This document shows positions 3-16,040 of a stretch of 64,000 nt of DNA, piece after piece; position 1 is the stretch's first letter; every line of letters begins with the position of its first letter. Under the pieces are notes generated by a model. It saw only the letters and a list, made by a program, of their open reading frames with translations, had not been told where the DNA came from and made no database searches. Position numbers and translations under genes: made by a program. This DNA is from Steroidobacteraceae bacterium (lineage in GTDB: Bacteria > Pseudomonadota > Gammaproteobacteria > Steroidobacterales > Steroidobacteraceae). Location of the stretch: positions 36,727 through 100,726 of the forward strand of contig JBILMF010000001.1 of NCBI GenBank assembly GCA_044375655.1, written 5' to 3'.

Positions 3-1274
3 CGCAGCGGTAATCGTTCCGGCGCAATCACGCAGCTCGCCGAAGCGCGCCGCCTGCTGCTCTCCCTTGGCGCGCAGAACCCTGAAAATGTAGTCGACGC
101 TGCCGAACTCGTGCGCACCAACTGGCTCTATGGCGAGGTGCTGCGCAATGCGGGGCAGACAACCGAGGCGCTGCCTCTGCTGCGCGAGGCCGTGGTGATC
201 GCCGATGGCATCCTTGCGCGCAATCCCGCCCACCGACCGGTGCTGCGTGCCAAGGCCACGGCACTGAGCCAGCTCTCGCAAGTGGAAGCCGACCGGCTGC
301 GATACGCGGCTGCACTCGACATCGCCAGAGAGGCGACGCGTATCAACGAATCGATCTCGACGCTGGAGCCCAAAGAATCACGCAACAACCTGCGCGTCAC
401 AAGGGGATACGAGGCCACGGCACTGTCTGAACTCGGTCGCGTGGCCGAAGCGGCCAAGGCGTCCGCAGCAGCCATCGAATTCCGCGCGGGCGAGTCGATA
501 GGCGGGTTCGCGTTGTTCAACATGGCGCGCGGCTTGAGCGAGCGGGCTGTCATCGCCGCAATCGAGGGCAAGGACGACGACGCCAGATCTCTTCTTGCAC
601 GCGCCAGGGACGCCGCCGCGGAGCATGCCAAGGTCAACCCGAACAAAATCGATAACGGCTTGTTGAGGGCGGGTTATTCGCTGACGCTTGCGCAGATCCA
701 GCTGCTGCGGCGCGATACAGCGGGTGTCGAGGCGGCAATGGCGGAGCCGATCGCGGCAGTCGATGCGTTGCGGCAAGACGATCCAGCCAGCAACCAGCAG
801 TCTTTCGGCTTGCTGACCTCGGCGCTCGCAACGGCAGCTGAGGCTGCGGCGTTGCAAGGCGCCCATGCGCGGGCGGAGCAGCACGCCCGTGCGGAGCTGC
901 AGGAATGGCGTCGCGACAAGAATCCTTCGCTCTTCGACCAGCGCGCCGCCCACGGCGCGCGCGTCCGTCTCGCGCTGGCGCTTGCCCGACAGGGCAAACT
1001 CGCCGAAGCGAATGCCACGCTGCGGCCGGTACTCGACTTCTTCGCGCTGCCGGCGGTCCGCGCCAGCGACTCCGTGTTGCTCAACGCCGAGCATGCGCGG
1101 GCGCTGCTCGCCGCGGCGCTCGCCAATCCGTCACGGCGCAGCGAACTGCTCGCCGAGTCGAAGCGCCGCTTCGACTCGATGCCGCTGGCCGTGCGACGAC
1201 TCGGCAACCTCGCGCTGACCAGCGAAGAGATCGAGCGGGAGATTCGCCGCGGTCCGACAGCCACGAGGAACTGA
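3..1274 (+). CDS. All-alpha TPR-like repeat protein, 5'-truncated by the window edge
   Basis: The frame of track ORF 111..1274 stays open back to nt 3, so the GTG at 111 is probably internal. The sequence is Ala/Leu/Arg-rich helical repeat with no TM segment. Stop TGA 1272-1274 overlaps the ATG at 1274 of the next gene (TGATG). Confidence 0.6.
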   Translation, partial: RSGNRSGAITQLAEARRLLLSLGAQNPENVVDAAELVRTNWLYGEVLRNAGQTTEALPLLREAVVIADGILARNPAHRPVLRAKATALSQLSQVEADRLRYAAALDIAREATRINESISTLEPKESRNNLRVTRGYEATALSELGRVAEAAKASAAAIEFRAGESIGGFALFNMARGLSERAVIAAIEGKDDDARSLLARARDAAAEHAKVNPNKIDNGLLRAGYSLTLAQIQLLRRDTAGVEAAMAEPIAAVDALRQDDPASNQQSFGLLTSALATAAEAAALQGAHARAEQHARAELQEWRRDKNPSLFDQRAAHGARVRLALALARQGKLAEANATLRPVLDFFALPAVRASDSVLLNAEHARALLAAALANPSRRSELLAESKRRFDSMPLAVRRLGNLALTSEEIEREIRRGPTATRN

Positions 1275-3544
1275 TGCCCGACATCTTCCTCTCCTATTCG
1301 CGTGACGATCAGGCGCGGGCGAAGCTCTTCGCCGAGGCCTTTGCGCGCGAGGGTTTCGAGGTGTGGTGGGACGTCGGCCTGCGGGCCGGGGAGGCCTACG
1401 ACGCGGTCACCGAGCAGGCGCTGCGCGATGCCAAAGCCGTGGTCGTGCTCTGGTCACGGCGCTCGGTAGCGAGCCGCTGGGTCCGTGCCGAAGCCACCAT
1501 CGCGCTGCGCAGCAATACTTTGGTGCCGGTGACCATCGAGCCCTGCGAGCGACCGATCATGTTCGAGCTCACGCATACCGCGGAGCTCACTCACTGGACG
1601 GGTGATGCGGCAGACCCCGCCTTCCGCAGTTTCATCGACGGTCTGCGTGGTTTCGTCGCACACGGCACAGCCACGAAGGCAACGACGTCAGCGGCAGCCA
1701 GCGGCGGCGATAACGTGTCGAGTTCGAGGTTGGCCGCAGGTCTCAAAGGTCTGTCGCGGCGACAGGTACGCCTGCCAATTTTGGTCGCGCTGATCGGCGC
1801 GGTCGGTCTCGCCGCGCTCGGCTTTGCGATCTCGCGGACGCTGCAACCGACCACCGGGAGCGCCACCACTCGCGTCGCACAGGTCGACATCAACCTACCC
1901 GCCGGCTATGTGATCGGCCCAGGCCTGCTCGAGCCGGTGGCGATCTCCCACGACGGCACCCGCCTCGCCTTCGTCGCCCTCAAGGACGACAAGTCGGCGC
2001 TCTTCGTACGCGCGCTCGACGAACCCGACGCCAAGCGACTCGACGGCACCGACGGCGCGGACGCGCCGTTCTTCTCGCCCGACGATCGCTGGATCGGGTT
2101 CTTCGCCGGCGGCAAGTTGCGCAAAGTACCGGTCGGTGGGGGTGCCGCGCAGGTACTGGCCGACGCCAACTTCCCCCGCGGCGGCGACTGGAGCGATGAC
2201 GGCTACATCTATTTCGCACCGACCAACTCCGGCAGCATCTGGCGCATCCCGGAGGCCGGCGGCACACCGACCGAGGTCACCCAGCTCGACGCCGGCAAGG
2301 GCGAGGTCTCGCATCGTTGGCCGCACCGCATCCGCGGTACCGACACCCTGCTCTTCTCAGCCTGGACGGGACCGGGCGATGACGAGGCTCGGCTAGCGGT
2401 GCAGTCGGTCGGGACGGCGGGGCACCGCTGGCTCGTCGAGGGCAACCGACCGCGCTATGACGCCCGTGCCGAAGTTCTGGCGTACCGGTACGGCAGCCAG
2501 TTTCTCACCGTGCCGTGGAATCCGTCGCAAGCGGATTTCGGCAAAGCGGCTCCGACGCAGGCGGCAGTTCAGCCTACCGACGGCGGGCGCAACGAGGGCA
2601 CAGGCAACTTTGCGTTCGCCGAGAACGGCACGCTCGTCTATCTGCGCACCGCCGAATCCCTGAGTGCCGCCCAGTTGAGCTGGGTCGACCGCGCGGGCAA
2701 GTCCACGCCCCTGCCGCTGCCACAACGCAAGTACGAGAACGTGGCGGTGTCACCCGACGGGTCCCGGGCTGTCTTGCAGATTCGCGAGGGCACGACCCGG
2801 CTGTGGGTCTACGATTTCGTACGCAGCACACTAACCCCGTTGCCCACCGGACCGGGCTCCAGCCAGGCACCGGTATGGAGCGCCGACAGCAGGCATATCT
2901 TTTATCGCGGTACGCGGCAGGGAACACGCAACCTCTACCGTATCGCTGCTGACGGCTCCGGCGAGGAAGAGCGGCTGACCTCAAAGCCTGGTGTCGTCCA
3001 GACCCCCATCTCGGTATCTAAAGATGGTCAAATCCTTCTCTACAACGAAAATGGGCCGACAGAACGGTTTGAAGCAGGTGCGTGGATGCTGCCGCTCGCG
3101 GCCAATCAGCAAGCGCGTCGACTGTTCCCGGCAGCGGTCGATGCCGCCAATGCCCATCTGTCACCCGATGGTCGTTGGGTGGCCTACGAAGCGAGGGTGG
3201 CTTCGCGGGCGGAAATCTTTGTCGCCCCGTTTGGTGGTGATGGCGAGCGACGGCTCATCTCGACCGATGGCGGCGAGCAGCCACTCTGGTCACGCGACGG
3301 TCGCGAGCTGTTCTTCAATTCGCCGCGAGGCCTGATGGTCGTCGACATCGGAGTAGCCGGGAAATTGGCCCCGAGCTCCCCGCGACTCCTGCTGGCCGGC
3401 CCGTTCACCATCCGCCAGGTCAATAACAACACCATGTACGGCATCGCGCCCGACGGCAGCCGCTTCCTGCGTATCCAGTCGGTGGCGCAGAACCAGAACA
3501 TCCGGGACATCGAACTGGTCTTCAACTGGCTCGAGGCACGCTGA
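1274..3544 (+). CDS. Membrane-anchored TIR protein A: TIR domain, single TM, periplasmic TolB/PD40-like beta-propeller
   Basis: In-frame ATG at 1274 inside track ORF 905..3544. The N-terminus MPDIFLSYSRDDQ...AVVVLWS...SRWVRAE carries TIR_2-type motifs. One hydrophobic helix (LPILVALIGAVGLAALGFAI) follows an SRRQVR cluster. The C-terminal ~550 aa has repeated PD40-like motifs: FFSPDDRWIGF, VSPDGSRAV, WSADSRHIFY, LSPDGRWVAY, WSRDGRELFF. Confidence 0.85.
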   Translation: MPDIFLSYSRDDQARAKLFAEAFAREGFEVWWDVGLRAGEAYDAVTEQALRDAKAVVVLWSRRSVASRWVRAEATIALRSNTLVPVTIEPCERPIMFELTHTAELTHWTGDAADPAFRSFIDGLRGFVAHGTATKATTSAAASGGDNVSSSRLAAGLKGLSRRQVRLPILVALIGAVGLAALGFAISRTLQPTTGSATTRVAQVDINLPAGYVIGPGLLEPVAISHDGTRLAFVALKDDKSALFVRALDEPDAKRLDGTDGADAPFFSPDDRWIGFFAGGKLRKVPVGGGAAQVLADANFPRGGDWSDDGYIYFAPTNSGSIWRIPEAGGTPTEVTQLDAGKGEVSHRWPHRIRGTDTLLFSAWTGPGDDEARLAVQSVGTAGHRWLVEGNRPRYDARAEVLAYRYGSQFLTVPWNPSQADFGKAAPTQAAVQPTDGGRNEGTGNFAFAENGTLVYLRTAESLSAAQLSWVDRAGKSTPLPLPQRKYENVAVSPDGSRAVLQIREGTTRLWVYDFVRSTLTPLPTGPGSSQAPVWSADSRHIFYRGTRQGTRNLYRIAADGSGEEERLTSKPGVVQTPISVSKDGQILLYNENGPTERFEAGAWMLPLAANQQARRLFPAAVDAANAHLSPDGRWVAYEARVASRAEIFVAPFGGDGERRLISTDGGEQPLWSRDGRELFFNSPRGLMVVDIGVAGKLAPSSPRLLLAGPFTIRQVNNNTMYGIAPDGSRFLRIQSVAQNQNIRDIELVFNWLEAR

Positions 3545-3548
3545 TGTT

Positions 3549-3577
3549 TTGACATCTGATGCGCTGAAAAATAACAT
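3549..3577 (+). promoter_or_regulatory. Sigma70-type promoter of vapBC with overlapping inverted repeat; predicts a leaderless or near-leaderless transcript
   Basis: TTGACA at 3549-3554, 17-nt spacer, TAACAT at 3572-3577. The vapB ATG at 3586 lies only 8 nt after the -10 box and has no SD. Inverted repeat TGATGCG (3557-3563) / CGCATCA (3580-3586) brackets the -10 box. Confidence 0.45.
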
Positions 3578-3585
3578 CACGCATC

Positions 3586-3873
3586 ATGCGCACGACGATT
3601 GATATCGACGACCCCATCCTCAAGAAACTCAAGGCTATCCAGGCGCGCGACGGTCGCTCCCTCGGTCGACTGGTGTCAGACCTCCTCGCGCAGGCGCTCG
3701 CCAGCAATGTGAAAGAGGTCGCGCCGCAGTACTTCGTGTGGGCTACCAGCCCCGGGCCGCTGCGGGTAGACCTGGCCGACAAAGATGCCGTTTATGCGGC
3801 GCTCGATGAGACGCAAGACGATCCCCGCGACAGCGCGCGCGACGACGCCCCACTGAAGCCGCCGCGCGCATGA
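3586..3873 (+). CDS. vapB: Type II antitoxin, VapB family (MRTTIDIDD-type)
   Basis: The N-terminus MRTTIDIDDPILKKLKAIQARDG is typical of VapB/Rv0623-like antitoxins. It is small (95 aa), and its stop overlaps the start of a PIN gene (ATGA at 3870-3873). Confidence 0.7.
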   Translation: MRTTIDIDDPILKKLKAIQARDGRSLGRLVSDLLAQALASNVKEVAPQYFVWATSPGPLRVDLADKDAVYAALDETQDDPRDSARDDAPLKPPRA

Positions 3874-4304
3874 GCTTTGCAATCGACGTCAATCTCCTCG
3901 TCTACGCCTCCGCGAAAGGCGCCCCGCAGCATGCGGCAGCTGATGCCTTTCTGCGCGACTGTGTGCGCGGCCCGGAGGTGTTTTATGTCGCGTGGCTGAG
4001 TCTCATGAGCTATGTACGTCTCGTGACCCATCCAAAGATTCTGCGCAACCCGCTCACCTCCGCGCAGGCGCAGCGCAACATCGAAGCGCTGCTCCGCGTG
4101 CCTCACTGCCGGACGCTCACGGAGCAGGAGGGATTCTGGTCGGTGTATCTCGAGTGCACGCAGGGTCAGCCGGTCCGCGGCAATGACGTACCCGATACCC
4201 ACCTCGCGGCGATCCTCAAGCAGAACGGCGTGACGCGGCTCTACACCGCCGATCGCGACTTCCGCCGCTTCGATTTCCTGAAGGTCATCGATCCGATCGG
4301 CTAA
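3870..4304 (+). CDS. vapC: Type II toxin, PIN-domain ribonuclease VapC
   Basis: Acidic PIN residues sit in IDVNLLVYA, NDVPDTHLAAI and YTADRDFRRF. It is 144 aa and translationally coupled to vapB. Confidence 0.8.
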   Translation: MSFAIDVNLLVYASAKGAPQHAAADAFLRDCVRGPEVFYVAWLSLMSYVRLVTHPKILRNPLTSAQAQRNIEALLRVPHCRTLTEQEGFWSVYLECTQGQPVRGNDVPDTHLAAILKQNGVTRLYTADRDFRRFDFLKVIDPIG

Positions 4305-4345
4305 GCGTCCGGCGCCCATCGGCGGTCGCCTGCGAGTCGACAGTT

Positions 4346-6373
4346 TCAGTCGGGTTTGCGCACCAACTGCTCGTCGGCCAGCCCTACTGAGCGCAGGAAG
4401 GTGGCCCAGCGTGGGTGGGTATACAAGGGACGGAAGAGATAGTTGATCTTCATCCAACCGATACCCGGGTCGCGCACGTCGCGCATTGTCTCGACCTGGA
4501 TCATGGCGCCGTCGAAGTCCCCCGCAGCGGCGAGCAGCGCGCCGAGATAGGCAGGGTAGTCGCCCAGTTTCTCGAGATTGGCGCTTTTCGATTTTGTTTC
4601 CGAGATGATCTCGCGCAGTCGGCGCTGGTCGCCGCGACCTGCCGCAACGAGTCCCTGGACGAACAGTCTCGTGAGCAGGTCGGGCTCATCGAGGCCGAAC
4701 TGCTCCGCTTCGTCGAGCCGACCGAGCTCTACGAGCACGAGCCCCATGAAGCCTCGGTACCGCTGCCCCTGCGGCGAAAGCTCGAGCGCACGACGGAACC
4801 GGGTTTGCGCATCGATAAACTGATCGCTGAAGCGATAGATGAGTCCCAGGTCGAACTGCGTGGCCGGGTTGAGCGGATCGAGTCCCAGCGCTCGTCCAGC
4901 GAGATCCAGAGCCTCCGCCTTGCGACCGATCCCGACCTTGAGCACGGCAGTCGAGACGAGCACGTCCGTGTCGCTCGGCCGCTGCGCGAGGGCGCGATCG
5001 AAGGCCCGCTCGGCCTCGAGCCACTTCCAGTCCGCGGTTCGCAACATCCAGCCGTGAGCGACCAGCACCTCGGGGCTGTCGGGCTCCGCAGCCAGCGCCG
5101 GTGCGAGCGCCGCCTTCGCGGCCGCCCACGCATCCCTCGGCACCATGCCGCCCCAGCGGCCGAGCTGGACATAGGCCCGCGCCTGCTGGACGCGAGCGGG
5201 TACGAAGTCAGGATCGCGTTCGAGTGCACGCTCGAAGAGCGTGAGCGACTGCTTCAGGTTGTCGATCCCTGCGCGGCTCGCGAGCGCGCGGCCCTCGAGG
5301 TAAAGCCGGAACGCTTCGGGCTCTACCTGCCGGGCGGTAGCGGTCGCCGCCTGCGTGAGCTGCGGCGAGATATTCCGGGCGACAAGTCCCGCGATCTCGT
5401 CCTGTACCGCAAAGATATCCTTGAGATCTCGGGTAAAGCTGTCGCTCCATACCTGGAAGCCGTCGGTCGCCTGCACGAGCTGCACGCTGATACGCACCTT
5501 GTCGTCCGAGCGGCGCACGCTGCCCTCGACGATGTAGGCGACGCCCAGCTGACGGGCGATCTCAGGGATTGGCACCTCCTTGCCCTTGAAGGAAAAGGCC
5601 GAAGTCCTGGCCGTGACCTTGAGATTCGGGATCCTCGCCAGAACATTGATCAGCTCCTCGCTGATCCCTTCGGAGAAGAACTCGTTATCGGTCTCGTCCG
5701 AAAGATTGGCGAAGGCGAGCACGGCGACCGAGTTGTTGGTGATCGCCCGCTGCGCTGAAGCGGTCGACGTCGGCGAGGAAGATACCGTGGGCGATGATGA
5801 TCGCCAGCCCATCACACCCACCGCAGTGGCGAGTAGTGCGAGTACGCCGACGACTGCGGCGATGAGGGTACGACGCGAGAGGCCGGCGCCCGGTCCGGAA
5901 GTGGGGGGTGCCGATGCAGGTGCCGGAAACGCCTTGGGGGCCATGCTGGCCGCAGTCGTCGCGGTTCCGGTCGCGGACTTCTCGCGCGCGACGAAGCCGC
6001 GCAGGTCCTCGATGAAGCTGCGGAACGCCGGGTCTGTCGCATCGCCCGTCCAGTGCGTGAGCTCCGCGGTATGCGTGAGCTCAAACATGATCGGCCGCTC
6101 GCAGGGCTCGATGCTCACGGGCACGAGCGTGTTGCTGCGCAGCGCCAGCGTTGCCTCGGCCCGCACCCAGCGGCTCGTCACCGAGCGCTGCGACCAGAGC
6201 ACGACCACGGCCTTCGCGTCGCGCAGCGCCTGCTCGGTGACCGCGTCGTACGCCTCCCCGGCACGCAGACCGACATCCCACCAGACCTCGAACCCCTCGC
6301 GCGCAAAGGCCTCGGCGAAGAGCTTCGCCCGCGCCTGATCGTCACGCGAATAAGAGAGGAAGATGTCGGGCAT
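4346..6373 (-). CDS. Membrane-anchored TIR protein B: TIR domain, single TM, TolB-N/FlgO-like module, TPR repeats
   Basis: I chose the ATG at 6373 because it matches the start of paralog A; the TTG at 6421 would overlap the upstream gene. The TIR region differs from protein A at about 7 of the first ~131 residues. TM helix LIAAVVGVLALLATAVGVMGW follows LSRRT. Next comes SVAVLAFANLSD...YIVEGSVRR...VRISVQLV, then several TPR-like repeats (ALERDPDFVPARVQQARAYVQLGRW, ALGLDPLNPATQFDLGLIY, ALELSPQGQRYRGFMGLVLVELGR). Confidence 0.85.
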   Translation of the reverse strand: MPDIFLSYSRDDQARAKLFAEAFAREGFEVWWDVGLRAGEAYDAVTEQALRDAKAVVVLWSQRSVTSRWVRAEATLALRSNTLVPVSIEPCERPIMFELTHTAELTHWTGDATDPAFRSFIEDLRGFVAREKSATGTATTAASMAPKAFPAPASAPPTSGPGAGLSRRTLIAAVVGVLALLATAVGVMGWRSSSPTVSSSPTSTASAQRAITNNSVAVLAFANLSDETDNEFFSEGISEELINVLARIPNLKVTARTSAFSFKGKEVPIPEIARQLGVAYIVEGSVRRSDDKVRISVQLVQATDGFQVWSDSFTRDLKDIFAVQDEIAGLVARNISPQLTQAATATARQVEPEAFRLYLEGRALASRAGIDNLKQSLTLFERALERDPDFVPARVQQARAYVQLGRWGGMVPRDAWAAAKAALAPALAAEPDSPEVLVAHGWMLRTADWKWLEAERAFDRALAQRPSDTDVLVSTAVLKVGIGRKAEALDLAGRALGLDPLNPATQFDLGLIYRFSDQFIDAQTRFRRALELSPQGQRYRGFMGLVLVELGRLDEAEQFGLDEPDLLTRLFVQGLVAAGRGDQRRLREIISETKSKSANLEKLGDYPAYLGALLAAAGDFDGAMIQVETMRDVRDPGIGWMKINYLFRPLYTHPRWATFLRSVGLADEQLVRKPD

Positions 6374-6384
6374 ACGTCGTCTGC

Positions 6385-8712
6385 TCAATCGTCTTTGGGT
6401 TGCTCGAGCAATGTCGGCCAATTGGTCACGAGGCGGAAGCCGAAGGTCGAGGACGGGATAGTCGGGACATTGAGCAGCAGGCGCTCGCCGTCCGCCGTAA
6501 CGTCTTCAAAGATCGGTCGGTCCGTCTCGGGTTGTTCCGGCAGGCGGAAGAGGAGTGTCGGCGCGGGAGGTCGGAAATCGGCGTCCTCGGCGACCTGTAC
6601 CGACATCAGATCGCCACTCGGAGCGGCAAACAGCAGTTCGCGGCCGCCACGCGTCCAGCGCGGTCGGAACCCGCCAGCGCTCGACACCTGCCACTGCTGG
6701 GCGGCGCCTGAGGTCGGCCGGACGTAGACCTCGCGATTGCCGGATTCGTCCGACACGTAAGCAACCCAACGGCCGTCCGGAGAGACATCGACGTGGTCCT
6801 GAGAGCCTGCCGCCTTCAGGATGATCGTCGGGCTGGGTTTTGGCGCGGCGAGATCGATCCGCATGATGTCGTAGTCGCTGCCCGGAAACTGTTCGGCGTA
6901 GAACAGAGTACGGCCGTCCGCGAGGACACGCCCCGGATCCTTCCAGCCGCCAGACGAATGGATCACCTGCATGTCCGCACCGTCATCCAGCGACTTGATG
7001 CAGAGATCGCCCACATCCTCGATGCGACATCCGAACACAATCCGTTTCGAGTCGTTGAGCCACGCGGGCGAATTGTATCCGCGGGCATCACGGGACAACC
7101 GCAGGCGTCGCCCTTCGCGAACGTCAGTTAACCACAGGCTTGATTCTCCGTAGAACTCGCCGACGACGGTAGCGATCTTGCTGCCGTCCGGCGAGAGCCG
7201 TGGCCAAAAATACCGGTCCACCGGACCCACGCTCCCCTGAAGGTTGCCGCGGCGGTCCACCCACAGCAGTCGGGATTCGCGCTCCAGGATCGAACTCGGC
7301 AGGAACAGCAAGGCACCCGAATCGGAGGCCGAGAAACCCATGAACCCTCGCGCCGGGTACCCGGCGATCTGGCCGACCGGAACGGGCATGGGCTCCCCGA
7401 CGATTTCGAGTCGATCCATGTCGAGACGTACCGCGAGCAGGTCCGCCTTGCGCCCGAAGAGCAGGTAACCGGGGTCGACGTACTGGGGATTGGACGCGCC
7501 GCTGAGCAGCAGACGCGGCGCATCACCCTGCAGATTGGCCAACATGAGACGCGCCGTTTCGGGCGTGTCCATCGATCCCGAAACCATCGCCAGAAAGACA
7601 AAATGCTGTCCATCGGGCAGGAACGCAGGCCAGCGGTAGGAATCCGGCGCCTTGGCACGCGCCACTTCGCGCGTTGGCCCCCCGGAGGCGGACACCGCGT
7701 GCAAGCCGGAGGCGATATCGCGCGAAAACAGGATCACATCGTCGCGGTTCCACGTGCCCCCGCGCCCCTGCGGCGCATCGGCCAGCACCTGCGCTGCGCT
7801 GCCGCGCAAATCCAGCTTCTTGAGCTTGCCGTCCGCGAAGAAACCGACCTGCAGGCCGTCGGGTGACCAGAACGGGTAGTAGCCACCCGTTGTTCCCGGC
7901 AATGCGCGCGGCGTCGCGGAGGATAAATCGCGCACGAACAACTGGCGCTCGCCGCTTCTGGTCCGGGCTGAGAACACGGCCTTGCGTCCATCCGGCGACA
8001 GGGCCGCGCCGAGTTCGAACGAACGAAGCAGCGTTGCATCCGCCGGCGGATCGAGGCTCGCGATGATGGGTTCCCGGAGTGGCGGATTACCCGGTCGCCA
8101 ACCGGTGAGCAGCGCTGTGAGCGCTCCGACCGCCAGCAGCGCGCAGCCCGTGGCGACAGCCCAAGCCACGCGCTCACGGCGCGAGCTGAGGGTGCGCAGT
8201 TTGGGTTTCAGCGCGGCGGGCGGTTCGGTCTTTGTCGTCGCGACCGCGCCGTCCTCGGCGGGTAGGGCGGCGATGGCCCGGGCCAACTCCTCGACCCGGT
8301 CCTCGATCCGGCCGCTGAAGCCGTCCGTCCAGTGATGCCTCGCGAGATAGAGTTCGAGCGAGCGGCCGGGCTGCACATCCTCGACCCGAAAGGTCAGGAT
8401 CGGCTTGCCGAGCGTGAAGGCGCGGTTTACCTCGTTCTTGACGAACGGCGCCTTGTTCGCGGCCGAGGAAAGAACGAGCAGAAAGACCGAGGTCGAGTCG
8501 ATGGCGTCGAGGATTGCCTCGTCCCACACTTTGCCGGGCACCACATCGCGCGGACCGATCCAGCAGGGCAGGCCGCGCGCCTCCAGCAGCGCACAGACTT
8601 CCATCGCGAGCGCGTGGTCGTTGTTCGAGTGGGAGATGAAAATGCGGGCCGGTTGTCGGACGTCGCTCAAGGAGCCCCCATCACTTTGCTTGCCGGAGTA
8701 TCTTGCGGACAT
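6385..8712 (-). CDS. Membrane-anchored TIR protein C: divergent TIR domain, single TM, TolB/PD40-like beta-propeller
   Basis: TIR_2 motifs: RIFISHSNNDH, VWDEAILDAI, VFLLVLSS, PFVKNEV. TM helix VAWAVATGCALLAVGALTALLTGW follows SSRRER. PD40-like motifs: LSPDGRKAVF, FWSPDGLQVGFF, LSPDGSKIA, VSPDGRWVAY, WTRGGRELLF. The stop lies 11 nt before the start of gene B. Confidence 0.85.
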   Translation of the reverse strand: MSARYSGKQSDGGSLSDVRQPARIFISHSNNDHALAMEVCALLEARGLPCWIGPRDVVPGKVWDEAILDAIDSTSVFLLVLSSAANKAPFVKNEVNRAFTLGKPILTFRVEDVQPGRSLELYLARHHWTDGFSGRIEDRVEELARAIAALPAEDGAVATTKTEPPAALKPKLRTLSSRRERVAWAVATGCALLAVGALTALLTGWRPGNPPLREPIIASLDPPADATLLRSFELGAALSPDGRKAVFSARTRSGERQLFVRDLSSATPRALPGTTGGYYPFWSPDGLQVGFFADGKLKKLDLRGSAAQVLADAPQGRGGTWNRDDVILFSRDIASGLHAVSASGGPTREVARAKAPDSYRWPAFLPDGQHFVFLAMVSGSMDTPETARLMLANLQGDAPRLLLSGASNPQYVDPGYLLFGRKADLLAVRLDMDRLEIVGEPMPVPVGQIAGYPARGFMGFSASDSGALLFLPSSILERESRLLWVDRRGNLQGSVGPVDRYFWPRLSPDGSKIATVVGEFYGESSLWLTDVREGRRLRLSRDARGYNSPAWLNDSKRIVFGCRIEDVGDLCIKSLDDGADMQVIHSSGGWKDPGRVLADGRTLFYAEQFPGSDYDIMRIDLAAPKPSPTIILKAAGSQDHVDVSPDGRWVAYVSDESGNREVYVRPTSGAAQQWQVSSAGGFRPRWTRGGRELLFAAPSGDLMSVQVAEDADFRPPAPTLLFRLPEQPETDRPIFEDVTADGERLLLNVPTIPSSTFGFRLVTNWPTLLEQPKDD

Positions 8713-8798: not shown

Positions 8799-10826
8799 TC
8801 AAGCCGGCACGGTGATCTGCTTCGCCTCGAACACCGCCTGCCAGCTTTCGATCTCGCTCACCACAATGTCGTCGGCGGCGTGCGCGAGCTCCGCGACCGA
8901 GCCGTAATCGAGCGCGGAGTCCGGCGCGCGCAGGATGAGCGCAATACGCGCATCCACCGCCTCGAGCTTGCCCGCCGTCACCCGCGAGATCGCCGCAAAG
9001 CGCTCGAAATCGCCGAAGAAACGGATGCCGGACAGCGCGCCGCCGAAGGTCGGCAGCGCCACGCCGAGAAAAGTGAATACTTTGGTCAGGCTCTTGAAGA
9101 GCTCCTGATCGAGGAGCCCGACCCAGCTGGTCGCTGCCAGAACGAGGTACAGCGCCGCCGCGGCCACCGCGAGCTGGAAGGAGCGCTCGGACAGGTGGTC
9201 GAGATTGTGGTGCACGGCGGTCAGGCGTCGCGCCTTCTGTGCGTGGTAGCCGCACTGCGAGGAAACATGCGGTGCGATCAACTCGACCAGTACGGCGCGC
9301 AGGTATTCCGGGGTGATGCGTACGTGGGGCAGACCGATTTCGCGTAGCGCATGGCGTGCATAGTGTTCGGGCCAGGCGGTGTCGGATCCACGCGGCCAGC
9401 GGCCGGTGGCGCGTGCTGCGCCGAGCGACAGCAGCAACGGTGAGTGGCGCAGGTATTCGGCGACGCGGCGTGTCTCGAACCAGCGGCCATGCCAGCGGCG
9501 TCCCTGGCCAACGAAGGTGATGGCAAGGATGGCGCCGAGCAGCACGAGTTCGAAGGCCGCGAACGGCCACTTCCAGGAACTGTCCACGACCGGCAGGTAG
9601 GCGACGCCGCTGATCACCGCCAACGCCGACAACACGAAGTTGACGACCATGCTGCCACGATAGGTGTCGGATAAATGCGCAGCGATGCCGTCTGACCAGG
9701 CAAAGCGACCGAGTACACCCTCGACCACGCGCTCGGCAAAGGGTCGGTCGGCCGACGGCAGGTTCGCGAGCGCCGAGGCCACGCCTGCGCCTGACCCGGT
9801 GGCGATCTCGTCGGGCGTCTCATAGGTCTGGGTCAGCGAGCGGCGCGGACGCGGACGCTTCTGCCCGTCGAAGCTGCGCTCTACCCAGCGGTACGCATGC
9901 CACAGCGGATTGCTGCGCGCGCGCCAGTTGCCGGCCGAGATCGCCGCGACCCCGAGATCGCGGGCGGGCGGCACAGCCGCCACGCCGACAACGCCCGGCA
10001 GCAGCGACGACAGCAAGATCTGTCGCAGCAGCGTTTCGCGGTCGGCGAGCGCGGAGTCCTCGTGGAGCAGTGCAAGCGACTCCGGTGCACCGAGGATGCG
10101 CCACGCATCGGGTACGGCGGGGTCGATCCAGAGTACGGGCGTACCCATGTCGAGGGCGGCGGCAACGGTATGGCCCGTGCCGCCGACGAGGCTGGTGCGG
10201 GCACCGTCCCAGACAGCGATCACCAGATCGGAATGCTCGATCATCACCCGCCCGGCGAGCGCCACGCGCACCGAGCTGTCGGCGCGAAACACATCCGAGC
10301 GGCCCACGTCTTCCGGGCGATCGTGCATGGCGAGGAGGTGTTCGGTGATCGCCGCATCGGCGTCGGCGAGCTCGAAGACCTGCGCCTGAGTGGTGATGGA
10401 TCGCAGCGCCGCAGCACGGCGCTGCACGTCAGCGTCGGCCGGTTCACGGCCGGCGAGCAGCGCGCGGGCGTCCTCAGCCGTGCGCGGGCCGGCGTTGATG
10501 GCGCAGTTGAGCGACTGTCCGAACGGCAGCAGAGCGATGAGATCCCAGCCGCGACCGAGGGCCGCATGCGCCGCCATCTGATCGGTGCCATCCGCCATGA
10601 GCGACTGCATGCGGATCGGCGCAAAGGGCTCGCCGAAGGGTGGGGTCAAGGAGCCGACGATGGCGACGATCTCGTCGAGCACGCGACCCATGGCGGACTC
10701 GATGGCCGCCGCACGCGGTGCGTAGGACGGATGGTCGGCTCGATGTCCCGTAACGCCGAGGGACAGACGCACGCGCGGCGCGCGCGGCGGAGTGACAGGT
10801 CGGGCGGCGTCGGTCGGTTCGCGCAC
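8799..10826 (-). CDS. SLOG (DprA/LOG-like Rossmann) domain fused to two SLATT/DUF4231-like 2TM modules
   Basis: N-terminal Rossmann-like pattern: LSLGVTGHR, SLMADGTDQMAAHAAL (compare DprA GxxxGID..AH..AL), DLVIAVWDG...LVGGTGHTVAAAL (LOG/DprA GGxG-type loop). Residues ~390-460 give TM (VVNFVLSALAVISGVAYLPVV), TM (WPFAAFELVLLGAILAITFVG), then RRWHGRWFETRRVAEYLR. Residues ~525-625 give GYHAQKARRL, then TM (FQLAVAAAALYLVLAATSWVGLL), TM (VFTFLGVALPTFGGALSGI) and an amphipathic helix. The GTG start is 9 nt after the eptA stop. Confidence 0.6.
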   Translation of the reverse strand: MREPTDAARPVTPPRAPRVRLSLGVTGHRADHPSYAPRAAAIESAMGRVLDEIVAIVGSLTPPFGEPFAPIRMQSLMADGTDQMAAHAALGRGWDLIALLPFGQSLNCAINAGPRTAEDARALLAGREPADADVQRRAAALRSITTQAQVFELADADAAITEHLLAMHDRPEDVGRSDVFRADSSVRVALAGRVMIEHSDLVIAVWDGARTSLVGGTGHTVAAALDMGTPVLWIDPAVPDAWRILGAPESLALLHEDSALADRETLLRQILLSSLLPGVVGVAAVPPARDLGVAAISAGNWRARSNPLWHAYRWVERSFDGQKRPRPRRSLTQTYETPDEIATGSGAGVASALANLPSADRPFAERVVEGVLGRFAWSDGIAAHLSDTYRGSMVVNFVLSALAVISGVAYLPVVDSSWKWPFAAFELVLLGAILAITFVGQGRRWHGRWFETRRVAEYLRHSPLLLSLGAARATGRWPRGSDTAWPEHYARHALREIGLPHVRITPEYLRAVLVELIAPHVSSQCGYHAQKARRLTAVHHNLDHLSERSFQLAVAAAALYLVLAATSWVGLLDQELFKSLTKVFTFLGVALPTFGGALSGIRFFGDFERFAAISRVTAGKLEAVDARIALILRAPDSALDYGSVAELAHAADDIVVSEIESWQAVFEAKQITVPA

Positions 10827-10835
10827 CGGCGAAGT

Positions 10836-12518
10836 TTAGCCGAGATCCCGTGGCCGGCATTCCGTAAACATGTCGAGCGCGCGATTGCGTGCGGCTGTAT
10901 CGACCTGCAGCAGGCCGAGTACGGTGTGGAAGATGTTGTCGTGCGACAGTTCGCGCTTGCGGCCGCGCTCGACGCAGGCCATGTCGAGGCCCATGCGGCG
11001 CGCGTACCCCTCCGAGGCCCAGAAGACCATCGGCACCCGGGTCTGCTGGTCCGGGGCGATCGCGTACGGCAGCGCGTGCAGGAAGACGCCGCTCTCGCCC
11101 AGCGACTCGCCGTGATCGGAGACGTAGAGCAGCGCCGTGTCCGCACGGTCGGCGATTGCCGCCAGCGAGCGGATCGCACCGGCAAGCAGGTGATCGGTAT
11201 AAAGGATGGTGTCGTCGTAAGCGTTGACGATTTCCTCGACCTGGCACTTGGAGAAATCCGTCTCGCGGCAGACCGGGGTGAACTGCTCGAACTGCCGTGG
11301 ATAGCGCAGGTGATAGCCGGGTCCGTGGCTGCCGAGCATGTGCAGCACGGCCAGGCGTCGACCCGCAGGCTGCGCCAGAGATTTTTCGAAGAGGTCGAAC
11401 ATCGCGCCGTCCATGCAGGGGCCATCGCCCACGCAAAGCTGCGGATAGTCCTCGCGCGCGGCCCGGATCTCGGGAAGGCCGCGACAGACGCCCTTGCAGT
11501 GGGTGTTGTTGCCGAACCATTGGACCGTGAAGCCCGCCTTGCCCACGATATCGACGAGGTTGTCGCGGGCCTTGGCCTTCTCCGCCGAGAAACCGGCGCG
11601 GCCGAGATCCGAGAACATGCAGGGGACGGAGATGGCGGTGGAGGTGCCGCAGGACGACACGGCAGTGAAGTTGATCAGACCCGGCGTCGCGGCAAGTTGC
11701 GGCGTGGTCTGCCGCCGGTACCCGTCCAGCCCAAAGTCTGCTGCGCGTGCGGTTTCGCCAACCACCAGTACGACGATGAGGGGACGCACGGCGTCCGCGG
11801 CCTGCCACAGCTTGCCGGGTCGTGCATCGCTGCCGATCGGTTCATAAGGCAAGTCGGGTTTCGTCACCTCGGCGACATAGCTGCCGGCACCCGCTAGGTA
11901 GTTGACCGGCACGAGCAGGTGGCGCAGTTCACGGTTGTTGCGCAGCGTCGCAGCATGGTCCTGGTAGTAGAGCGCGGCGATCGCCCCGATGCCGAGTGCC
12001 GTGAGCCCCAGTGCGAGGCCACGGTGCGCCAACTCAACTCGCCACGTCGCGAGGACGAGACGCGTGCGCATCACCAGCACGGCGGGCAGCACGCCGAGCA
12101 GGCCGACGTAGAGGATCAGACTGAGATTGATGAGCTCCCCCGCCTCGAGGCCGTCGGTCTCGAAGACATTGCGGATCATCACCCGGTCGATGCGCACGCC
12201 GTAGGCCTGCACGAAGTAGGACGCGAGGGCGGCGAGCAGCAACACGACCGCCAGCAGCGGGCGGGCGAGCGGCCGGATCAGCGTGAACACCAGCAGAAAC
12301 AGGTTGATCAGCAGAAAGGCGAGCAGCGCGAACGAGATCAGGTAGAAGACATCGTCCGCCGAAGCGGGCGGCCGGATCTCGAACACCCGCGACCAGAAAG
12401 GCAGGTTGAGTGCGAGCAGGCACCAGAGCGACGCGCAGGCCGTGAGCGCCGTGGTGCTGATCTGCCATCGGGGGAGTTGCAGTTTCATGGAGATATCGTG
12501 CCCGGAGTGCGGCCGCAT
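10836..12518 (-). CDS. eptA: Phosphoethanolamine-lipid A transferase (EptA/MCR family)
   Basis: Five N-terminal TM helices plus a sulfatase-like domain with VVGETARAADFGLDGY, SSCGTSTAISVPCMFS (nucleophilic Thr context as in EptA/MCR-1), HMLGSHGPGYHLRYP and YVSDHGESLGE. An alternative internal start ATG at 12488 (MKLQLPRW) is possible; GC3 of the intervening 10 codons favours 12518. Confidence 0.9.
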   Translation of the reverse strand: MRPHSGHDISMKLQLPRWQISTTALTACASLWCLLALNLPFWSRVFEIRPPASADDVFYLISFALLAFLLINLFLLVFTLIRPLARPLLAVVLLLAALASYFVQAYGVRIDRVMIRNVFETDGLEAGELINLSLILYVGLLGVLPAVLVMRTRLVLATWRVELAHRGLALGLTALGIGAIAALYYQDHAATLRNNRELRHLLVPVNYLAGAGSYVAEVTKPDLPYEPIGSDARPGKLWQAADAVRPLIVVLVVGETARAADFGLDGYRRQTTPQLAATPGLINFTAVSSCGTSTAISVPCMFSDLGRAGFSAEKAKARDNLVDIVGKAGFTVQWFGNNTHCKGVCRGLPEIRAAREDYPQLCVGDGPCMDGAMFDLFEKSLAQPAGRRLAVLHMLGSHGPGYHLRYPRQFEQFTPVCRETDFSKCQVEEIVNAYDDTILYTDHLLAGAIRSLAAIADRADTALLYVSDHGESLGESGVFLHALPYAIAPDQQTRVPMVFWASEGYARRMGLDMACVERGRKRELSHDNIFHTVLGLLQVDTAARNRALDMFTECRPRDLG

Positions 12519-12526
12519 GCGGCCGT

Positions 12527-14239
12527 TCAGAAGCTGCGCTTGGTCTCGACGGTCACCTGCATGCTCTTCAGCGACTTGTCACCGCCTACCGGAAAAGCGA
12601 GGTCGATATGCAGCACGTTGCCGAGCGCCGAGCGGCTGTTGCCGAGGCGCAAGCCGACACCGACGTCACCGAGCACCTCCTGCGTGCCGCTCGCAAACGG
12701 GTCACGACCCCAGGTGCCACCGACGTCGAGGAAGGCGGCGCCGCCGACATGCACCAGCCGGAAGGGATACCAGTCGGTGAAGGCCCGCTGTTCGAGGGTC
12801 AGCAGCCAGCGACCCTGCCCGCCCTGATAGCGCAGCGGATAACCGCGCAACCCCGTATCGCCGCCCAGCATCAGCTCGCGATCGGCATCCAGCTTCTCAC
12901 CGCTGTCGACCGCCAGACTGGCAAAGAAAAGCCGCCTCTCGGACTGCCGGTGATAGTAGCGCGCCGAGGCGCTGAGCAGCGTATCGGCGAACGCACCGTG
13001 CTCATGGCGGCCGTCCAGCGAGGCGGCGAGCAGCAGGCTGCGCTTGCCGCTCAATTCGTAGCCCTTGCTGAGTTGTGAGGTGAAGATCACCGCGTTACGG
13101 TCGGCATCGAGACCCTTGGTCGAGTAGCCGATCCGTATGCCGGCGCGCCAGCCGTACTGGAAGTCCTCGGTGCGCTCGATCTGGTCGAGGTTGCGCAGCG
13201 CGCGAAAATCATCCTCCACGAACTCGACCGCCGCCCACGGATAGACCAGCTTGCGATCCGCAGGCGCCGCCGCGCGAAAGCGGCTGCCCGCCACCGGGTC
13301 GAACACCCGCTCGTCGTCCGTGAGACCGACCGACCAGCGTGTGACGAAGCGCCCCTGCAGGCCGCGCGACCAGCCGACCCAGGCGCTGCGGAAGCGGCGA
13401 TCGACGAGATACTCGGCAACCGGCTCGCCGCGGTCGTAGCGCGTGTCGATGCGATTCGTCTTGAACGAGGAAAAACCGCCCGCACGGCGGGTATCGAGGG
13501 CGTAGAAAGGCTGCTCGAGCAGCAGCCGCTTGGCGCCACCGTCGCTGAAGTCGGAGTGCTCGAGCTCGAGCGCCCACCAGGTGCTGCCGAGTTGGCGGTC
13601 GACATAGCGGAAGGAGGTGATGTCGCGATCGACTTCGTTCAGCTGCTTGAAGTTGAGCTGCGAGCCCTGCCCGAAAAGATTGAGCTCCTCGAGTTCGAAG
13701 CCTGAGGTGCTCTTGCCGCCCGAGCGGCCGAAAGAGATGCCGGGATTGAGCGTCCAGACATCACGCGTCACCACCTCGATGTCCACCACCCCGTCGACGT
13801 AGCGCACCGGACGCACTGCGGCATCGTAGAGATAGCGGGTATCGCGCAGCAGCCGCTCGCTCTCCTCGAGCAGTCGCCCCTTGTAGGGATCGCCCGCGCG
13901 GAACAGCAGCCGGTCGACGATGGTCGTTTCACGACTGTTGACGTGCAGGCGATTGGCCGTACGGAACAGCCAGGTGTTCTCATCTGGACGGCTGGTGTCG
14001 AAGACGTCGAGCGCACGGATGGTCACCGTGCCGATGCGTGCGCCCGCCGCCTCGAGTGTGGCGTCATCCGGTACCTCGGCCGGGCGTTTGCGTTCCACCG
14101 GGTCGGTACGGGCCGCCACCAGCGGCCTGCCAGCGGGGGGCTCGGCCGCAGACAGCCACGCGCAGAACAAAGCAACGCCTCCAAAGACTGTTACCGCGAC
14201 AAGTCGATCAAGCGGCTCTAGACATCGGCGATGGTTCAT
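12527..14239 (-). CDS. Omp85/BamA-family outer-membrane protein (POTRA plus beta-barrel)
   Basis: ATG at 14239 (MNHRRCL...) gives a signal peptide ending in WLSAAEP. A POTRA-like region (IGTVTIRALDVFD...) precedes long alternating beta-strand sequence that ends in the aromatic terminus VETKRSF. Confidence 0.8.
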   Translation of the reverse strand: MNHRRCLEPLDRLVAVTVFGGVALFCAWLSAAEPPAGRPLVAARTDPVERKRPAEVPDDATLEAAGARIGTVTIRALDVFDTSRPDENTWLFRTANRLHVNSRETTIVDRLLFRAGDPYKGRLLEESERLLRDTRYLYDAAVRPVRYVDGVVDIEVVTRDVWTLNPGISFGRSGGKSTSGFELEELNLFGQGSQLNFKQLNEVDRDITSFRYVDRQLGSTWWALELEHSDFSDGGAKRLLLEQPFYALDTRRAGGFSSFKTNRIDTRYDRGEPVAEYLVDRRFRSAWVGWSRGLQGRFVTRWSVGLTDDERVFDPVAGSRFRAAAPADRKLVYPWAAVEFVEDDFRALRNLDQIERTEDFQYGWRAGIRIGYSTKGLDADRNAVIFTSQLSKGYELSGKRSLLLAASLDGRHEHGAFADTLLSASARYYHRQSERRLFFASLAVDSGEKLDADRELMLGGDTGLRGYPLRYQGGQGRWLLTLEQRAFTDWYPFRLVHVGGAAFLDVGGTWGRDPFASGTQEVLGDVGVGLRLGNSRSALGNVLHIDLAFPVGGDKSLKSMQVTVETKRSF

Positions 14240-14610
14240 TCGGTGAACAGCAACGCGCCCGTCACCAGAGGCAGCGCCAGGTGGACACGCAGGAAACCGG
14301 GACTGAGGCGGCGGAGCGACAAGGTTGTGAGGTGGCTTGTGGCAAGGCTCCCGGGACGATCGGAGACGACCGAGGAGGCCCTGCGCGGCTTCAAGGAGAC
14401 CTTGAAATCCGTCGCAAGTTCCCGAAGTTATTGACGTTTCGGACAACCCCCGGGCGCAAGTGTGACGCAGGGCAGGTACGGTGGCCAGCCTTTACCCGCC
14501 GCGCGGCCTGCCGCATCATCCATGGCCCGCTCTACCTCGCGCCAGCGCACCGCACCCGATCCTGCCGACTGCGCACCCCGGGAACAGCGGCCATCCTCTG
14601 AGGGTCGACC

Positions 14611-15135
14611 ATGAAAAAACTGCTCGCGCTCGTTCTGTTCGCCATCGCAGCGCCGCTCGGCCTCGCCGCCGCCGAAGTCGGCAAGCCAGCGCCGGATTTC
14701 CGGCTGCAGGACCAGACCGGCGCGTGGCGCTCGCTGGCCGATTACCGGGGCAAGTGGGTAGTGCTCTATTTCTACCCCAAGGACAACACCCCGGGCTGCA
14801 CCACTCAGGCCTGCGAGTTCCGCGACGAGATCTTCGCCTTCCGCAGGGCCAACGCGGTGATCCTCGGCGTGAGCGTCGACAAGGTCGACTCCAAGGAAGC
14901 CTTCGCCAAGGAGCACAGCCTGCCGTTCCCGGTGCTGGCGGACGCCGATACCGCCACCACCCGCGCCTACGGCTCGCTCACCAGCTACCCGCAGTTCAAG
15001 CTCTTCAATATCGCCCGCCGCGACACTTTCATCATCGACCCCGAGGGTCGGGTGGCGAGGCGCTTCGACAACGTCAATCCCAACGGGCACTCGAAGATGG
15101 TGCTCGCCGAGCTGACCGCCCTGCAGGCCCGCTGA
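14611..15135 (+). CDS. bcp: Secreted peroxiredoxin, Bcp/PrxQ type
   Basis: Signal peptide MKKLLALVLFAIAAPLGLAAA; peroxidatic Cys motif YFYPKDNTPGCTTQACEF. Confidence 0.9.
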   Translation: MKKLLALVLFAIAAPLGLAAAEVGKPAPDFRLQDQTGAWRSLADYRGKWVVLYFYPKDNTPGCTTQACEFRDEIFAFRRANAVILGVSVDKVDSKEAFAKEHSLPFPVLADADTATTRAYGSLTSYPQFKLFNIARRDTFIIDPEGRVARRFDNVNPNGHSKMVLAELTALQAR

Positions 15136-15192
15136 ACCCGGGCGTCACGGCCGCGCGACGAACTGCGACGGACTACCCGTTTTGGCTAACCG

Positions 15193-15966: not shown

Positions 15967-16040
15967 CTGACCCGCCGCGCCGCCTATAATCGGCGCCGTG
16001 CCGACCCGCTCGGCTTGTTGGCTGTCGCCACCGGTAATCC

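Follow-up and report, generated by a model that had tools for sequence, protein, structure and literature searches.

The first 11 kb of a 64,000-nucleotide stretch of a Steroidobacteraceae bacterium (contig JBILMF010000001.1, positions 36,727 to 100,726 of the forward strand; hereafter the window) carry three genes, A, B and C, each encoding a TIR domain, a single predicted transmembrane (TM) segment and a large sensor region, and beside them lies a partner gene whose product joins a SLOG-like domain to a SLATT region. Judged from sequence, A, B and C belong to a family whose members join a conserved TIR head to an exchangeable sensor and which is genomically coupled to one membrane protein. 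All three open reading frames (ORFs) were found where an original prediction, made from the letters of this DNA, had placed them, and the domain content it gave for A, B and C was right; the three do not look like stand-alone receptors, however, and it missed both the conserved SLOG-like/SLATT partner at 8799-10826 and an nSTAND1-type gene upstream of A. The features of the locus are as follows (aa, amino acid; nt, nucleotide).

3..1274, plus strand: nSTAND1-type NTPase homologue gene, 3' part; C-terminal alpha-helical/TPR-like region, frame open at the window start.
1274..3544, plus strand: gene A, 756 aa; TIR_2, linker, arginine cluster and TM segment, PD40/Tricorn-like double propeller.
Gene A, aa 4-108 (nt 1283-1597), plus strand: TIR_2 (Pfam, E 5e-20).
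Gene A, aa ~166-188 (nt ~1769-1837), plus strand: arginine cluster and predicted TM segment (hydropathy).
Gene A, aa ~200-756, plus strand: PD40/Tricorn-like double propeller (Pfam PD40).
3586-3873, plus strand: VapB-like antitoxin gene, between A and B.
3870-4304, plus strand: VapC PIN toxin gene (TIGR00028, 1.8e-34; Pfam PIN, 1e-5).
4346..6373, minus strand: gene B, 675 aa; TIR_2, arginine cluster and TM segment, CadC/HilA-type module, TPR array.
Gene B, aa 3-107 (nt 6367-6053), minus strand: TIR_2 (Pfam, E 3e-20).
Gene B, aa ~167-190 (nt ~5875-5804), minus strand: arginine cluster and predicted TM segment (hydropathy).
Gene B, aa ~205-345, minus strand: CadC/HilA-type alpha/beta module, followed by a TPR array to aa 675 (HilA/EilA and CadC models, TPR families).
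6385..8712, minus strand: gene C, 775 aa; TIR_2 of another subfamily, arginine cluster and TM segment, PD40 propeller region.
Gene C, aa 24-143 (nt 8643-8284), minus strand: TIR_2 (Pfam, E 4e-19).
Gene C, aa ~183-205 (nt ~8166-8098), minus strand: arginine cluster and predicted TM segment (hydropathy).
Gene C, aa ~215-775, minus strand: PD40 propeller region (Pfam PD40).
8799..10826, minus strand: partner gene, 675 aa; SLOG-like Rossmannoid domain and SLATT region.
Partner, aa ~18-275, minus strand: probable SLOG-like Rossmannoid domain (AlphaFold2 model, Foldseek).
Partner, aa 391-442 and 549-601, minus strand: SLATT region with two 2-TM hairpins (SLATT_1/DUF4231, AlphaFold2 model).

Genes C and B are separated by 11 nt on the same strand, and the partner gene lies 86 nt upstream of C, again on the same strand, with no terminator-like site found in a terminator scan of this 86-nt gap. 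The protein encoded by A is identical to P0001, which comes from a metagenome contig that ends ~350 nt outside the window, beyond its start.

The TIR heads fall into two subfamilies. A and B both begin 'MPDIFLSYSRDDQ', and the TIR_2 domain of C, at 24% identity to that of A, belongs to a different subfamily. An exhaustive search with the TIR of A (aa 1-130) returned 392 clusters (50% identity clustering) at E ≤ 1e-30, and the A/B subfamily is unusually conserved (60-78% identity). Alignment of the best 150 revealed ten invariant columns (S7, Y8, W60, S67, E73, A74, P85, P94, F97 and W108), of which E73, within 'SRWVRAE' in A and B, aligns with the catalytic glutamate of RUN1 ('SRWCLDE'), RPP1 and AbTir and stays invariant once C-type proteins are added to the alignment. 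The 'S-x-W-x-x-x-E' context used as the test for an NADase-type TIR reads 'SRWVRAE' in A and B, and the corresponding stretch in C reads 'FVKNE'. Because none of the 150 relatives departs from glutamate at the catalytic position, enzymatic signalling is likely, as the original prediction had supposed, and the TIR domain is probably an enzyme that cleaves nicotinamide adenine dinucleotide (NAD+).

That prediction had also placed an arginine cluster before the TM helix of each protein and, by the positive-inside rule, the TIR domain in the cytoplasm and the sensor in the periplasm; both statements stand, the second as a prediction. The cluster strings are present ('GLSRRQVRLPILVALIGAVGLAALGFAISR' in A, 'GLSRRTLIAAVVGVLALLATAVGVMGWRS' in B and 'LSSRRERVAWAVATGCALLAVGALTALLTGWRP' in C), in each protein immediately ahead of its one strongly hydrophobic stretch, a segment of 22-25 residues. 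One strong Kyte-Doolittle peak is seen per protein (19-residue mean of 2.47 in A, 2.64 in B and 1.99 in C), the next best peak staying below 1.6, and in all three the lysine plus arginine (K+R) count is higher in the N-terminal than in the C-terminal flank of the segment. An N-terminal signal peptide is absent from A, B and C, because the TIR domain begins at residues 1-24. The charge bias extends to relatives, with K+R higher on the N-terminal side in 38 of the 48 B-type TIR relatives that have a hydrophobic segment (lower in one), in 5/8 PD40-type TIR relatives (lower in 2/8) and in 68/92 kinase-linked propeller homologues (lower in 4/92); the segment itself is present in all eight PD40-type TIR relatives and in 92 of 102 kinase homologues. 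Given a single hydrophobic segment, no signal peptide and a family-wide positive-inside bias, we predict that A, B and C are single-pass inner-membrane proteins of N-in/C-out orientation, with the TIR domain in the cytoplasm and the sensor, presumably a ligand-binding repeat domain, in the periplasm, and this prediction is as solid as sequence analysis allows. An 'RR' pair precedes the segment in 26/65 TIR relatives and 52/92 kinase relatives; a twin-arginine (Tat) motif at this place was rejected, as the RR frequency is no more than the positive-inside rule explains. In a class of ~635-aa Sphingomonadales proteins the TM segment is Gly/Ala-rich and weakly hydrophobic ('RRxLLxGGxAxxAxGGLxxW') and is missed by simple hydropathy thresholds.

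The sensor module of B occurs both with and without such a segment. Among 101 long TIR-head relatives with the B-type module, 48 have a TM segment (median 672 aa) and 49 are devoid of any hydrophobic segment (median 559 aa), carrying the module after a short linker; in the latter the segment is missing outright rather than weakened, and the sensor module begins ~40 residues earlier. Neither a TM segment nor a signal peptide was found in a Mesorhizobium cyclase-module-TPR protein or in a Chondrinema module-TPR-helix-turn-helix (HTH) protein, and HilA is likewise soluble, without a TM segment. Because about half of its TIR relatives have no TM segment, the module of B is not intrinsically periplasmic but serves in both compartments, and its placement outside in B would be due to the TM segment.

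The sensors are shared with receptors of other output. Pkinase-TM-PD40 proteins of Acidobacteriota and Gemmatimonadota carry, in their C-terminal halves, propellers 60% identical to that of A; such kinases, whole or as fragments, account for 116 of the best 120 matches to A (propeller identity 45-61%), and four of the 120 carry a TIR domain. A metagenome scan aimed at PD40-type TIR loci retrieved kinase-linked propellers only and serves as a control and as a measure of the kinase-to-TIR ratio: its 80 loci with an A-type propeller contain 94 propeller ORFs, with a kinase domain in 74 and a TIR domain in none. No Pkinase domain is present in A, B or C, and the propeller of A and C is all that is shared with the kinase receptors; for C, the identity to kinase-linked propellers is 34%. 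In B, aa 189-524 match the HilA/EilA model (E 5e-9), aa 166-401 match the CadC model (2e-4), and aa 215-582 are 31-35% identical to rhizobial proteins annotated as 'adenylate/guanylate cyclase domain-containing'. The earlier claim that the same periplasmic modules commonly sit behind other outputs thus holds for kinases, CadC/HilA-type regulators and cyclases, with the reservation that the module of B is periplasmic only where a TM segment precedes it.

That TIR has replaced such outputs, as was likewise proposed, is borne out by exchanges on both sides of the joint. P0003 and P0004 combine the propeller of A, at 80% identity, with a C-type TIR (79-82% identical to that of C, 28% to that of A), and the TIR domains of A and B are 95% identical as proteins on unrelated sensors; output replacement on shared sensors is seen directly in these predicted proteins. 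P0002 carries both parts of A. In DNA, A and B are 85-95% identical over nt 1-390 and random by nt ~450, a pattern suggesting that the head by itself was recently duplicated or gene-converted, and because the identity collapses in the linker before the TM segment we assign the recombination joints to the interval between head and TM segment. Both heads are under purifying selection, because their codon differences are 31 synonymous versus 8 non-synonymous. In window coordinates the head similarity spans 1274-1720 versus 6373-5925. P0003 and P0004 (loci L004-L008) represent natural head-swap variants, the gene in L004 lying divergent from a TIR-TPR gene, and the PD40-type representative P0408 sits on a 2.9-kb contig without gene context. 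In locus L039 (12036-13427) the same TIR head is followed by a TM segment and a formylglycine-generating-enzyme-like domain (FGE-sulfatase), beside a SLOG/SLATT gene. The TM-FGE-sulfatase part is predicted to be a further extracytoplasmic sensor type.

We turned to the structure of the partner protein as modelled by AlphaFold2 (mean confidence score, pLDDT, of 90.6 overall, and of 93.6 when the N-terminal domain is modelled alone). In the model an alpha/beta domain at the N-terminus is followed by two long 2-TM hairpins, and the basic residues of the hairpins lie on the side of the N-terminal domain, a charge distribution that places the SLOG-like domain in the cytoplasm. Foldseek matched the isolated domain to DprA (3uqz, probability 1.0, TM-score 0.41) and TM1055 (1rcu, probability 0.99, TM-score 0.50) with E of 0.01-0.03, and LOG (5its) and TT1465 (1wek) scored lower; these four are its only high-probability structural matches and all belong to the SLOG superfamily. 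The motifs 'GVTGHR' and an invariant 'GGTGH' are consistent with the SLOG class, Pfam gave a weak Nuc_deoxyrib_tr match only, and the N-terminal domain is, on the modelled fold, probably SLOG-like. The SLATT part is recognised across 71 family members, of which SLATT_1 matches 65 (best 2.5e-11), SLATT_3 42 and DUF4231 49. Submitting the whole 675-aa model to Foldseek produced long-helix noise (ABC exporters, pore toxins), and the isolated N-terminal domain alone was informative. Both SLOG and SLATT were reportedly defined by Burroughs et al. in 2015 in Nucleic Acids Research (NAR).

Conserved gene linkage ties this partner to the TIR head. The partner family is found at 438 places in species-representative genomes, the best match being an uncultured Acidibacter sp. 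(Steroidobacteraceae) at 91% identity, and the best 80 loci (50-91% identical) were scanned by hmmsearch with a hidden Markov model of the A/B TIR head, a locus being termed complete if it extends ≥5 kb on both sides. A TIR gene of the A/B subfamily is present in 54/80 partner loci, nearly all at E 1e-29 to 1e-72, and in 29 of the 39 complete loci (within 3.5 kb in 25); the nearest TIR gene lies less than 300 nt from the partner gene in 26 loci. None of the 80 kinase-propeller control loci from the metagenome scan contains an A/B-type TIR. The TIR-bearing partner loci come mainly from Sphingomonadales, Caulobacterales, Hyphomonadaceae and Steroidobacteraceae; the isolate Novosphingobium sp. 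RL4 has the link as well, and it extends to Caballeronia sp. SBC2 plasmid pSBC2-4 (L095, 20202-33974), where the gene for a partner homologue (26% identity; annotated 'DUF4231 domain-containing protein') precedes one for a TIR protein and then one for an nSTAND1-WD40 protein. Each locus holds one to five tandem TIR paralogues (five, for example, in L064), whose heads mostly share 77-95% identity within a locus, against mostly 24-40% for their sensors; in a few pairs that arose by recent duplication the sensor identity is 48-73%, and pairs of different TIR type have head identities of 34-37%. Conserved heads with divergent sensors are the pattern expected if many receptors feed one receptor of a defined signal. 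The sensors found on this TIR head near the partner comprise soluble module plus TPR, TM plus module plus TPR, TM plus FGE-sulfatase, and NB-ARC/nSTAND1 plus TPR.

A further gene is coupled to A at its 5' side. The partial gene at 3-1274 has no stop codon from position 3 onwards within its frame, its start lying beyond the window, and its own stop overlaps the ATG of A (TGATG), which points to translational coupling. Over 417 aa its product shares 52% identity with residues 656-1072 of a 1078-aa protein encoded upstream of A's homologue in L001 (6765-10001; Pfam nSTAND1 1e-33, TM segment at aa 449-473), where the nSTAND1 gene and the A homologue overlap in the same way. By this C-terminal part the gene at 3-1274 is assigned as an nSTAND1-type homologue whose NTPase domain region lies beyond the window. 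The operon in L001 begins with a SIR2-TIR gene (SIR2_2+TIR_2), followed by the nSTAND1 gene, the A homologue and a C-type TIR-PD40 gene. The nSTAND1-WD40 protein of the Caballeronia plasmid likewise has an internal TM segment (aa 523-549), and because each of the two proteins has one internal TM segment, their repeat domains may be extracytoplasmic.

Signal-peptide-bearing trypsin/caspase-like proteases are encoded in 24 of the 31 related loci with TM-type TIRs and in 0/16 loci with soluble TIRs only (Fisher p = 1.6e-7), a co-occurrence that hints that the TM-type forms deal with the periplasm. The proteases sit between or beside the SLOG/SLATT and TIR genes (the loci include L023, L029, L032, L033, L035, L037, L048, L050, L052, L067, L074, L078, L081 and L091), and some are ~650-700 aa long and trypsin-like, with a caspase-like N-terminal region ('FVGIDxYxFS...GAVNDA'). 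In the window no secreted trypsin/caspase-like protease lies next to the system. A Trypsin_2 ORF at 16041-17408 (plus strand), whose DegP-like product has an N-terminal hydrophobic anchor, was rejected as a counterpart and not counted, because it belongs to a different family and lies 5 kb off with unrelated genes between.

In order to rationalise these observations, we favour, with moderate confidence, a reading of the locus as a TIR signalling system akin to Thoeris (type VII-like), in which the TIR proteins are receptor-type and in part transmembrane and the effector is SLOG-like/SLATT. The sequences show which domains are present, what topology they predict, that heads have been swapped, that the gene linkage is conserved and that heads stay alike where sensors diverge; building on this, the pathway would begin when an extracytoplasmic cue engages or clusters a sensor. 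The cytoplasmic TIR heads would then assemble and cleave NAD+ to give an ADP-ribose-derived messenger, as the invariant glutamate and known TIR enzymes suggest, and the messenger would bind the SLOG-like domain of the partner, as conserved gene linkage and the Thoeris precedent suggest. The SLATT region would in turn permeabilise or gate the membrane, so that growth would stop or the cell would die, most likely in defence against phages or other invaders. Several sensors of differing specificity would feed one effector, much as multiple ThsB proteins serve a single effector in Thoeris. The TM variants A, B and C would put the sensing step in the periplasm, and A would additionally be coupled to the nSTAND1-type NTPase gene. 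As a broader proposal, which we advance tentatively and rate as somewhat short of an even chance, bacteria would possess an 'outside-in' TIR pathway in which TM receptors read periplasmic events and an NAD+-derived messenger opens a SLOG-gated SLATT pore; by analogy with the Toll/Spaetzle cascade, the secreted trypsin/caspase-like proteases would possibly assist in it.

Two alternatives concern the proteins themselves. The TIR domains could act as scaffolds, as in animal Toll-like receptors (TLRs) and MyD88, recruiting other TIR proteins such as SIR2-TIR by homotypic contact without a small molecule; a SIR2-TIR gene does head the operon of A's homologue in L001 and several TIR proteins are encoded next to each other, but all 150 relatives keep the catalytic-position glutamate, an adaptor-like protein is not among the conserved neighbours, and the partner that is conserved has a nucleotide-binding-type fold and not a TIR domain, which leaves this role highly improbable. 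To an arrangement in which all domains are cytoplasmic and the hydrophobic segment spans no membrane, as in the TM-less relatives, we give very little credence. The same sensor module does exist without the segment in 49 of 101 B-type TIR relatives, in the rhizobial cyclase and in the HTH protein, but these relatives miss the segment entirely and start the module ~40 residues earlier, whereas A, B and C have segments of 22-25 residues that reach 19-residue hydropathies of 2.0-2.6 and are flanked by arginine clusters; moreover, the segment persists in all 8 PD40-type relatives and 92/102 kinase homologues, and the secreted proteases are seen with the TM class only.

Two further alternatives concern what the locus does. 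Each TIR-TM-sensor protein might be an autonomous, SARM1-like suicide receptor that depletes NAD+ alone, the SLOG/SLATT gene being an independent neighbour or a regulator. The conserved catalytic glutamate and the many published bacterial TIRs that are NAD+-depleting effectors would fit, as would the short contigs of A/C homologues (L001 and L004-L008), on which no SLOG/SLATT gene was found; we nevertheless regard it as unlikely, as the SLOG/SLATT linkage is strong and taxonomically wide (29/39 complete loci, still present at 26% identity) and near-identical heads among locus paralogues, needless for an autonomous NADase, would be selected by a shared downstream receptor. Alternatively, the proteins might be ordinary transmembrane signal transducers, like the kinase, cyclase and CadC relatives of their sensors, and a TIR-made nucleotide might gate the SLATT channel in response to envelope or nutrient cues rather than invaders. 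The sensors are common to kinases, cyclases and transcription factors, TIR head and partner are highly conserved and uniform in length, and the window outside 1-11 kb resembles ordinary chromosome, a window scan finding no tRNA or integrase near the system. Against such a non-immune role, which we think improbable, stand the conflict-system elements around these genes (nSTAND1 NTPases, the SIR2-TIR gene in L001, VapBC, caspase/trypsin-like proteases), the copy number of 1 to 5 with fast-diverging sensors, and the fact that all characterised TIR+SLATT or TIR+SLOG pairs are anti-phage.

Several observations weigh against the Thoeris-like reading that we nonetheless prefer. The match of the window partner to SLATT_1 (1e-6, 28.7 bits) falls below the curated cut-off of 41 bits, and that to DUF4231 (23.9 bits) below the cut-off of 24.7. 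The SLOG assignment rests on modest structural likeness (TM-score 0.41-0.50, Foldseek E 0.01-0.4), the ThsA SLOG domain is absent from the top Foldseek matches of the N-terminal domain, and sequence and profile searches of PDB sequences with the partner and its N-terminal domain gave no meaningful match. No PADLOC model matches the partner protein, and PADLOC 2.0 and NCBIfam do not recognise the system, A, B and C giving generic TIR-level matches only. Partner loci devoid of any TIR gene also exist (L009-L011 and 9/39 complete loci), outside the Acidibacter-like lineage the TIR genes of the partner are TPR-type and often soluble, and the PD40 type of A and C is linked to the partner in the window and L013 only; the missing SLOG/SLATT gene on the short contigs of A/C homologues points the same way. 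Finally, TIR head and partner are 50-90% identical across classes, which is unusual for defence genes, and this strong conservation together with the ordinary chromosomal surroundings makes a housekeeping signalling role possible.

Among the neighbouring genes, a sigma-70-like promoter match (10/12) at 3549-3577 lies just 5' of the VapB-like gene. Directly upstream of the partner, at 10836-14446 on the minus strand, are genes for an EptA-type phosphoethanolamine transferase (annotated EptA_B_N + Sulfatase in the source contig) and a 639-aa Omp85-like protein, a pair that also flanks the partner in L013, a locus 92% identical to this one. The ORF at 14481-15989 (plus strand) was rejected as a gene; its Arg/Pro-rich translation matches no family, and it is probably a non-coding frame in high-GC DNA.

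Part of this logic is already known, namely TIR+SLATT and TIR+SLOG pairing and kinase-TM-propeller receptors, and TIR-TPR fusions are common in databases. In the searchable literature we found no prior description of TIR+PD40 proteins or of membrane-anchored or periplasmic TIR sensors, and in the searchable literature, PADLOC and NCBIfam none of the SLOG-like/SLATT family with sensor-fused TIR arrays or of one-TM TIR family members with PD40, TPR or FGE-sulfatase outside. To our knowledge, bacterial TIR systems described so far (Thoeris, CBASS/Pycsar effectors, Avs, SpbK) detect invaders in the cytoplasm. If the broader 'outside-in' proposal is true, the locus would be the first bacterial immune or signalling system with a TIR enzyme as the direct output of an extracytoplasmic receptor, and a natural example of module exchange among kinase, cyclase, winged helix-turn-helix (wHTH) and TIR outputs on the same sensors. 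One TIR head on soluble, STAND or TM-periplasmic sensors would show that TIR signalling can report extracytoplasmic events, and would offer a tractable system for studying TIR triggers, signal-receptor co-evolution and whether the animal receptor-TM-TIR layout has an equivalent in bacteria at the level of function. The partner would be a candidate effector family, with ~438 loci in species-representative genomes and currently without defence annotation.

The closest known relatives in logic are the Thoeris systems. In type I, a TIR-made signal derived from ADP-ribose (ADPR) is read by a SLOG domain (ThsA SIR2-SLOG with one or more ThsB); the present locus is similar in having a SLOG-type domain as the presumed signal receptor and several TIR paralogues that would feed one effector, but its output is SLATT and not SIR2, its sensors are fused to TIR, and its SLOG-like domain is nearer to DprA/LOG-type members than to ThsA in the fold search. 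Type VII Thoeris pairs the TIR protein ThsB with the SLATT effector ThsH through a cyclic ADPR (cADPR) signal (Yirmiya et al., bioRxiv 10.64898/2025.12.03.692087). By analogy, TIR genes here adjoin a SLATT membrane protein, the TIR domain has the catalytic glutamate, and ADPR-signal logic is expected. The TIR proteins of the window differ in their length of 675-775 aa and in their large sensors, which in all three follow a TM helix; periplasmic sensors are not reported for ThsB. The effector differs from ThsH, compared by description, in two additions, a SLOG-like domain at the N-terminus and a further 2-TM hairpin.

On the sensor side, the Ser/Thr kinase-TM-PD40 receptors share a homologous propeller and the same TM position and charge bias but carry a kinase in place of TIR, the TIR versions being rare; M. 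tuberculosis PknD follows the same kinase-TM-propeller logic. CadC/ToxR-type and HilA-type regulators and rhizobial cyclase-TPR proteins share the alpha/beta module and TPR of B, their output being wHTH or cyclase instead. The envelope-sensing phage defences Kiwa KwaA, Zorya ZorAB and SNIPE (PMC13434031) are similarly membrane-embedded, have portions in the periplasm and are proposed to detect entering phage at the envelope, but the proteins and outputs are unrelated and involve neither TIR nor a nucleotide messenger.

The original prediction had likened the layout to that of animal TLRs, and at the level of compartments this comparison with TLR/IL-1R is apt: the proteins are predicted to be single-pass, with a repeat-built domain outside, TIR inside and diversified sensors. 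The order along the chain is reversed, however, with TIR N-terminal and the sensor C-terminal (type II rather than type I), the ectodomain is PD40 or TPR and not leucine-rich repeat or immunoglobulin, and the TIR here keeps the glutamate typical of enzyme TIRs (SARM1, plant TNLs, bacterial TIRs). The likeness is convergent and not orthologous, and it is valid at the compartment level only.

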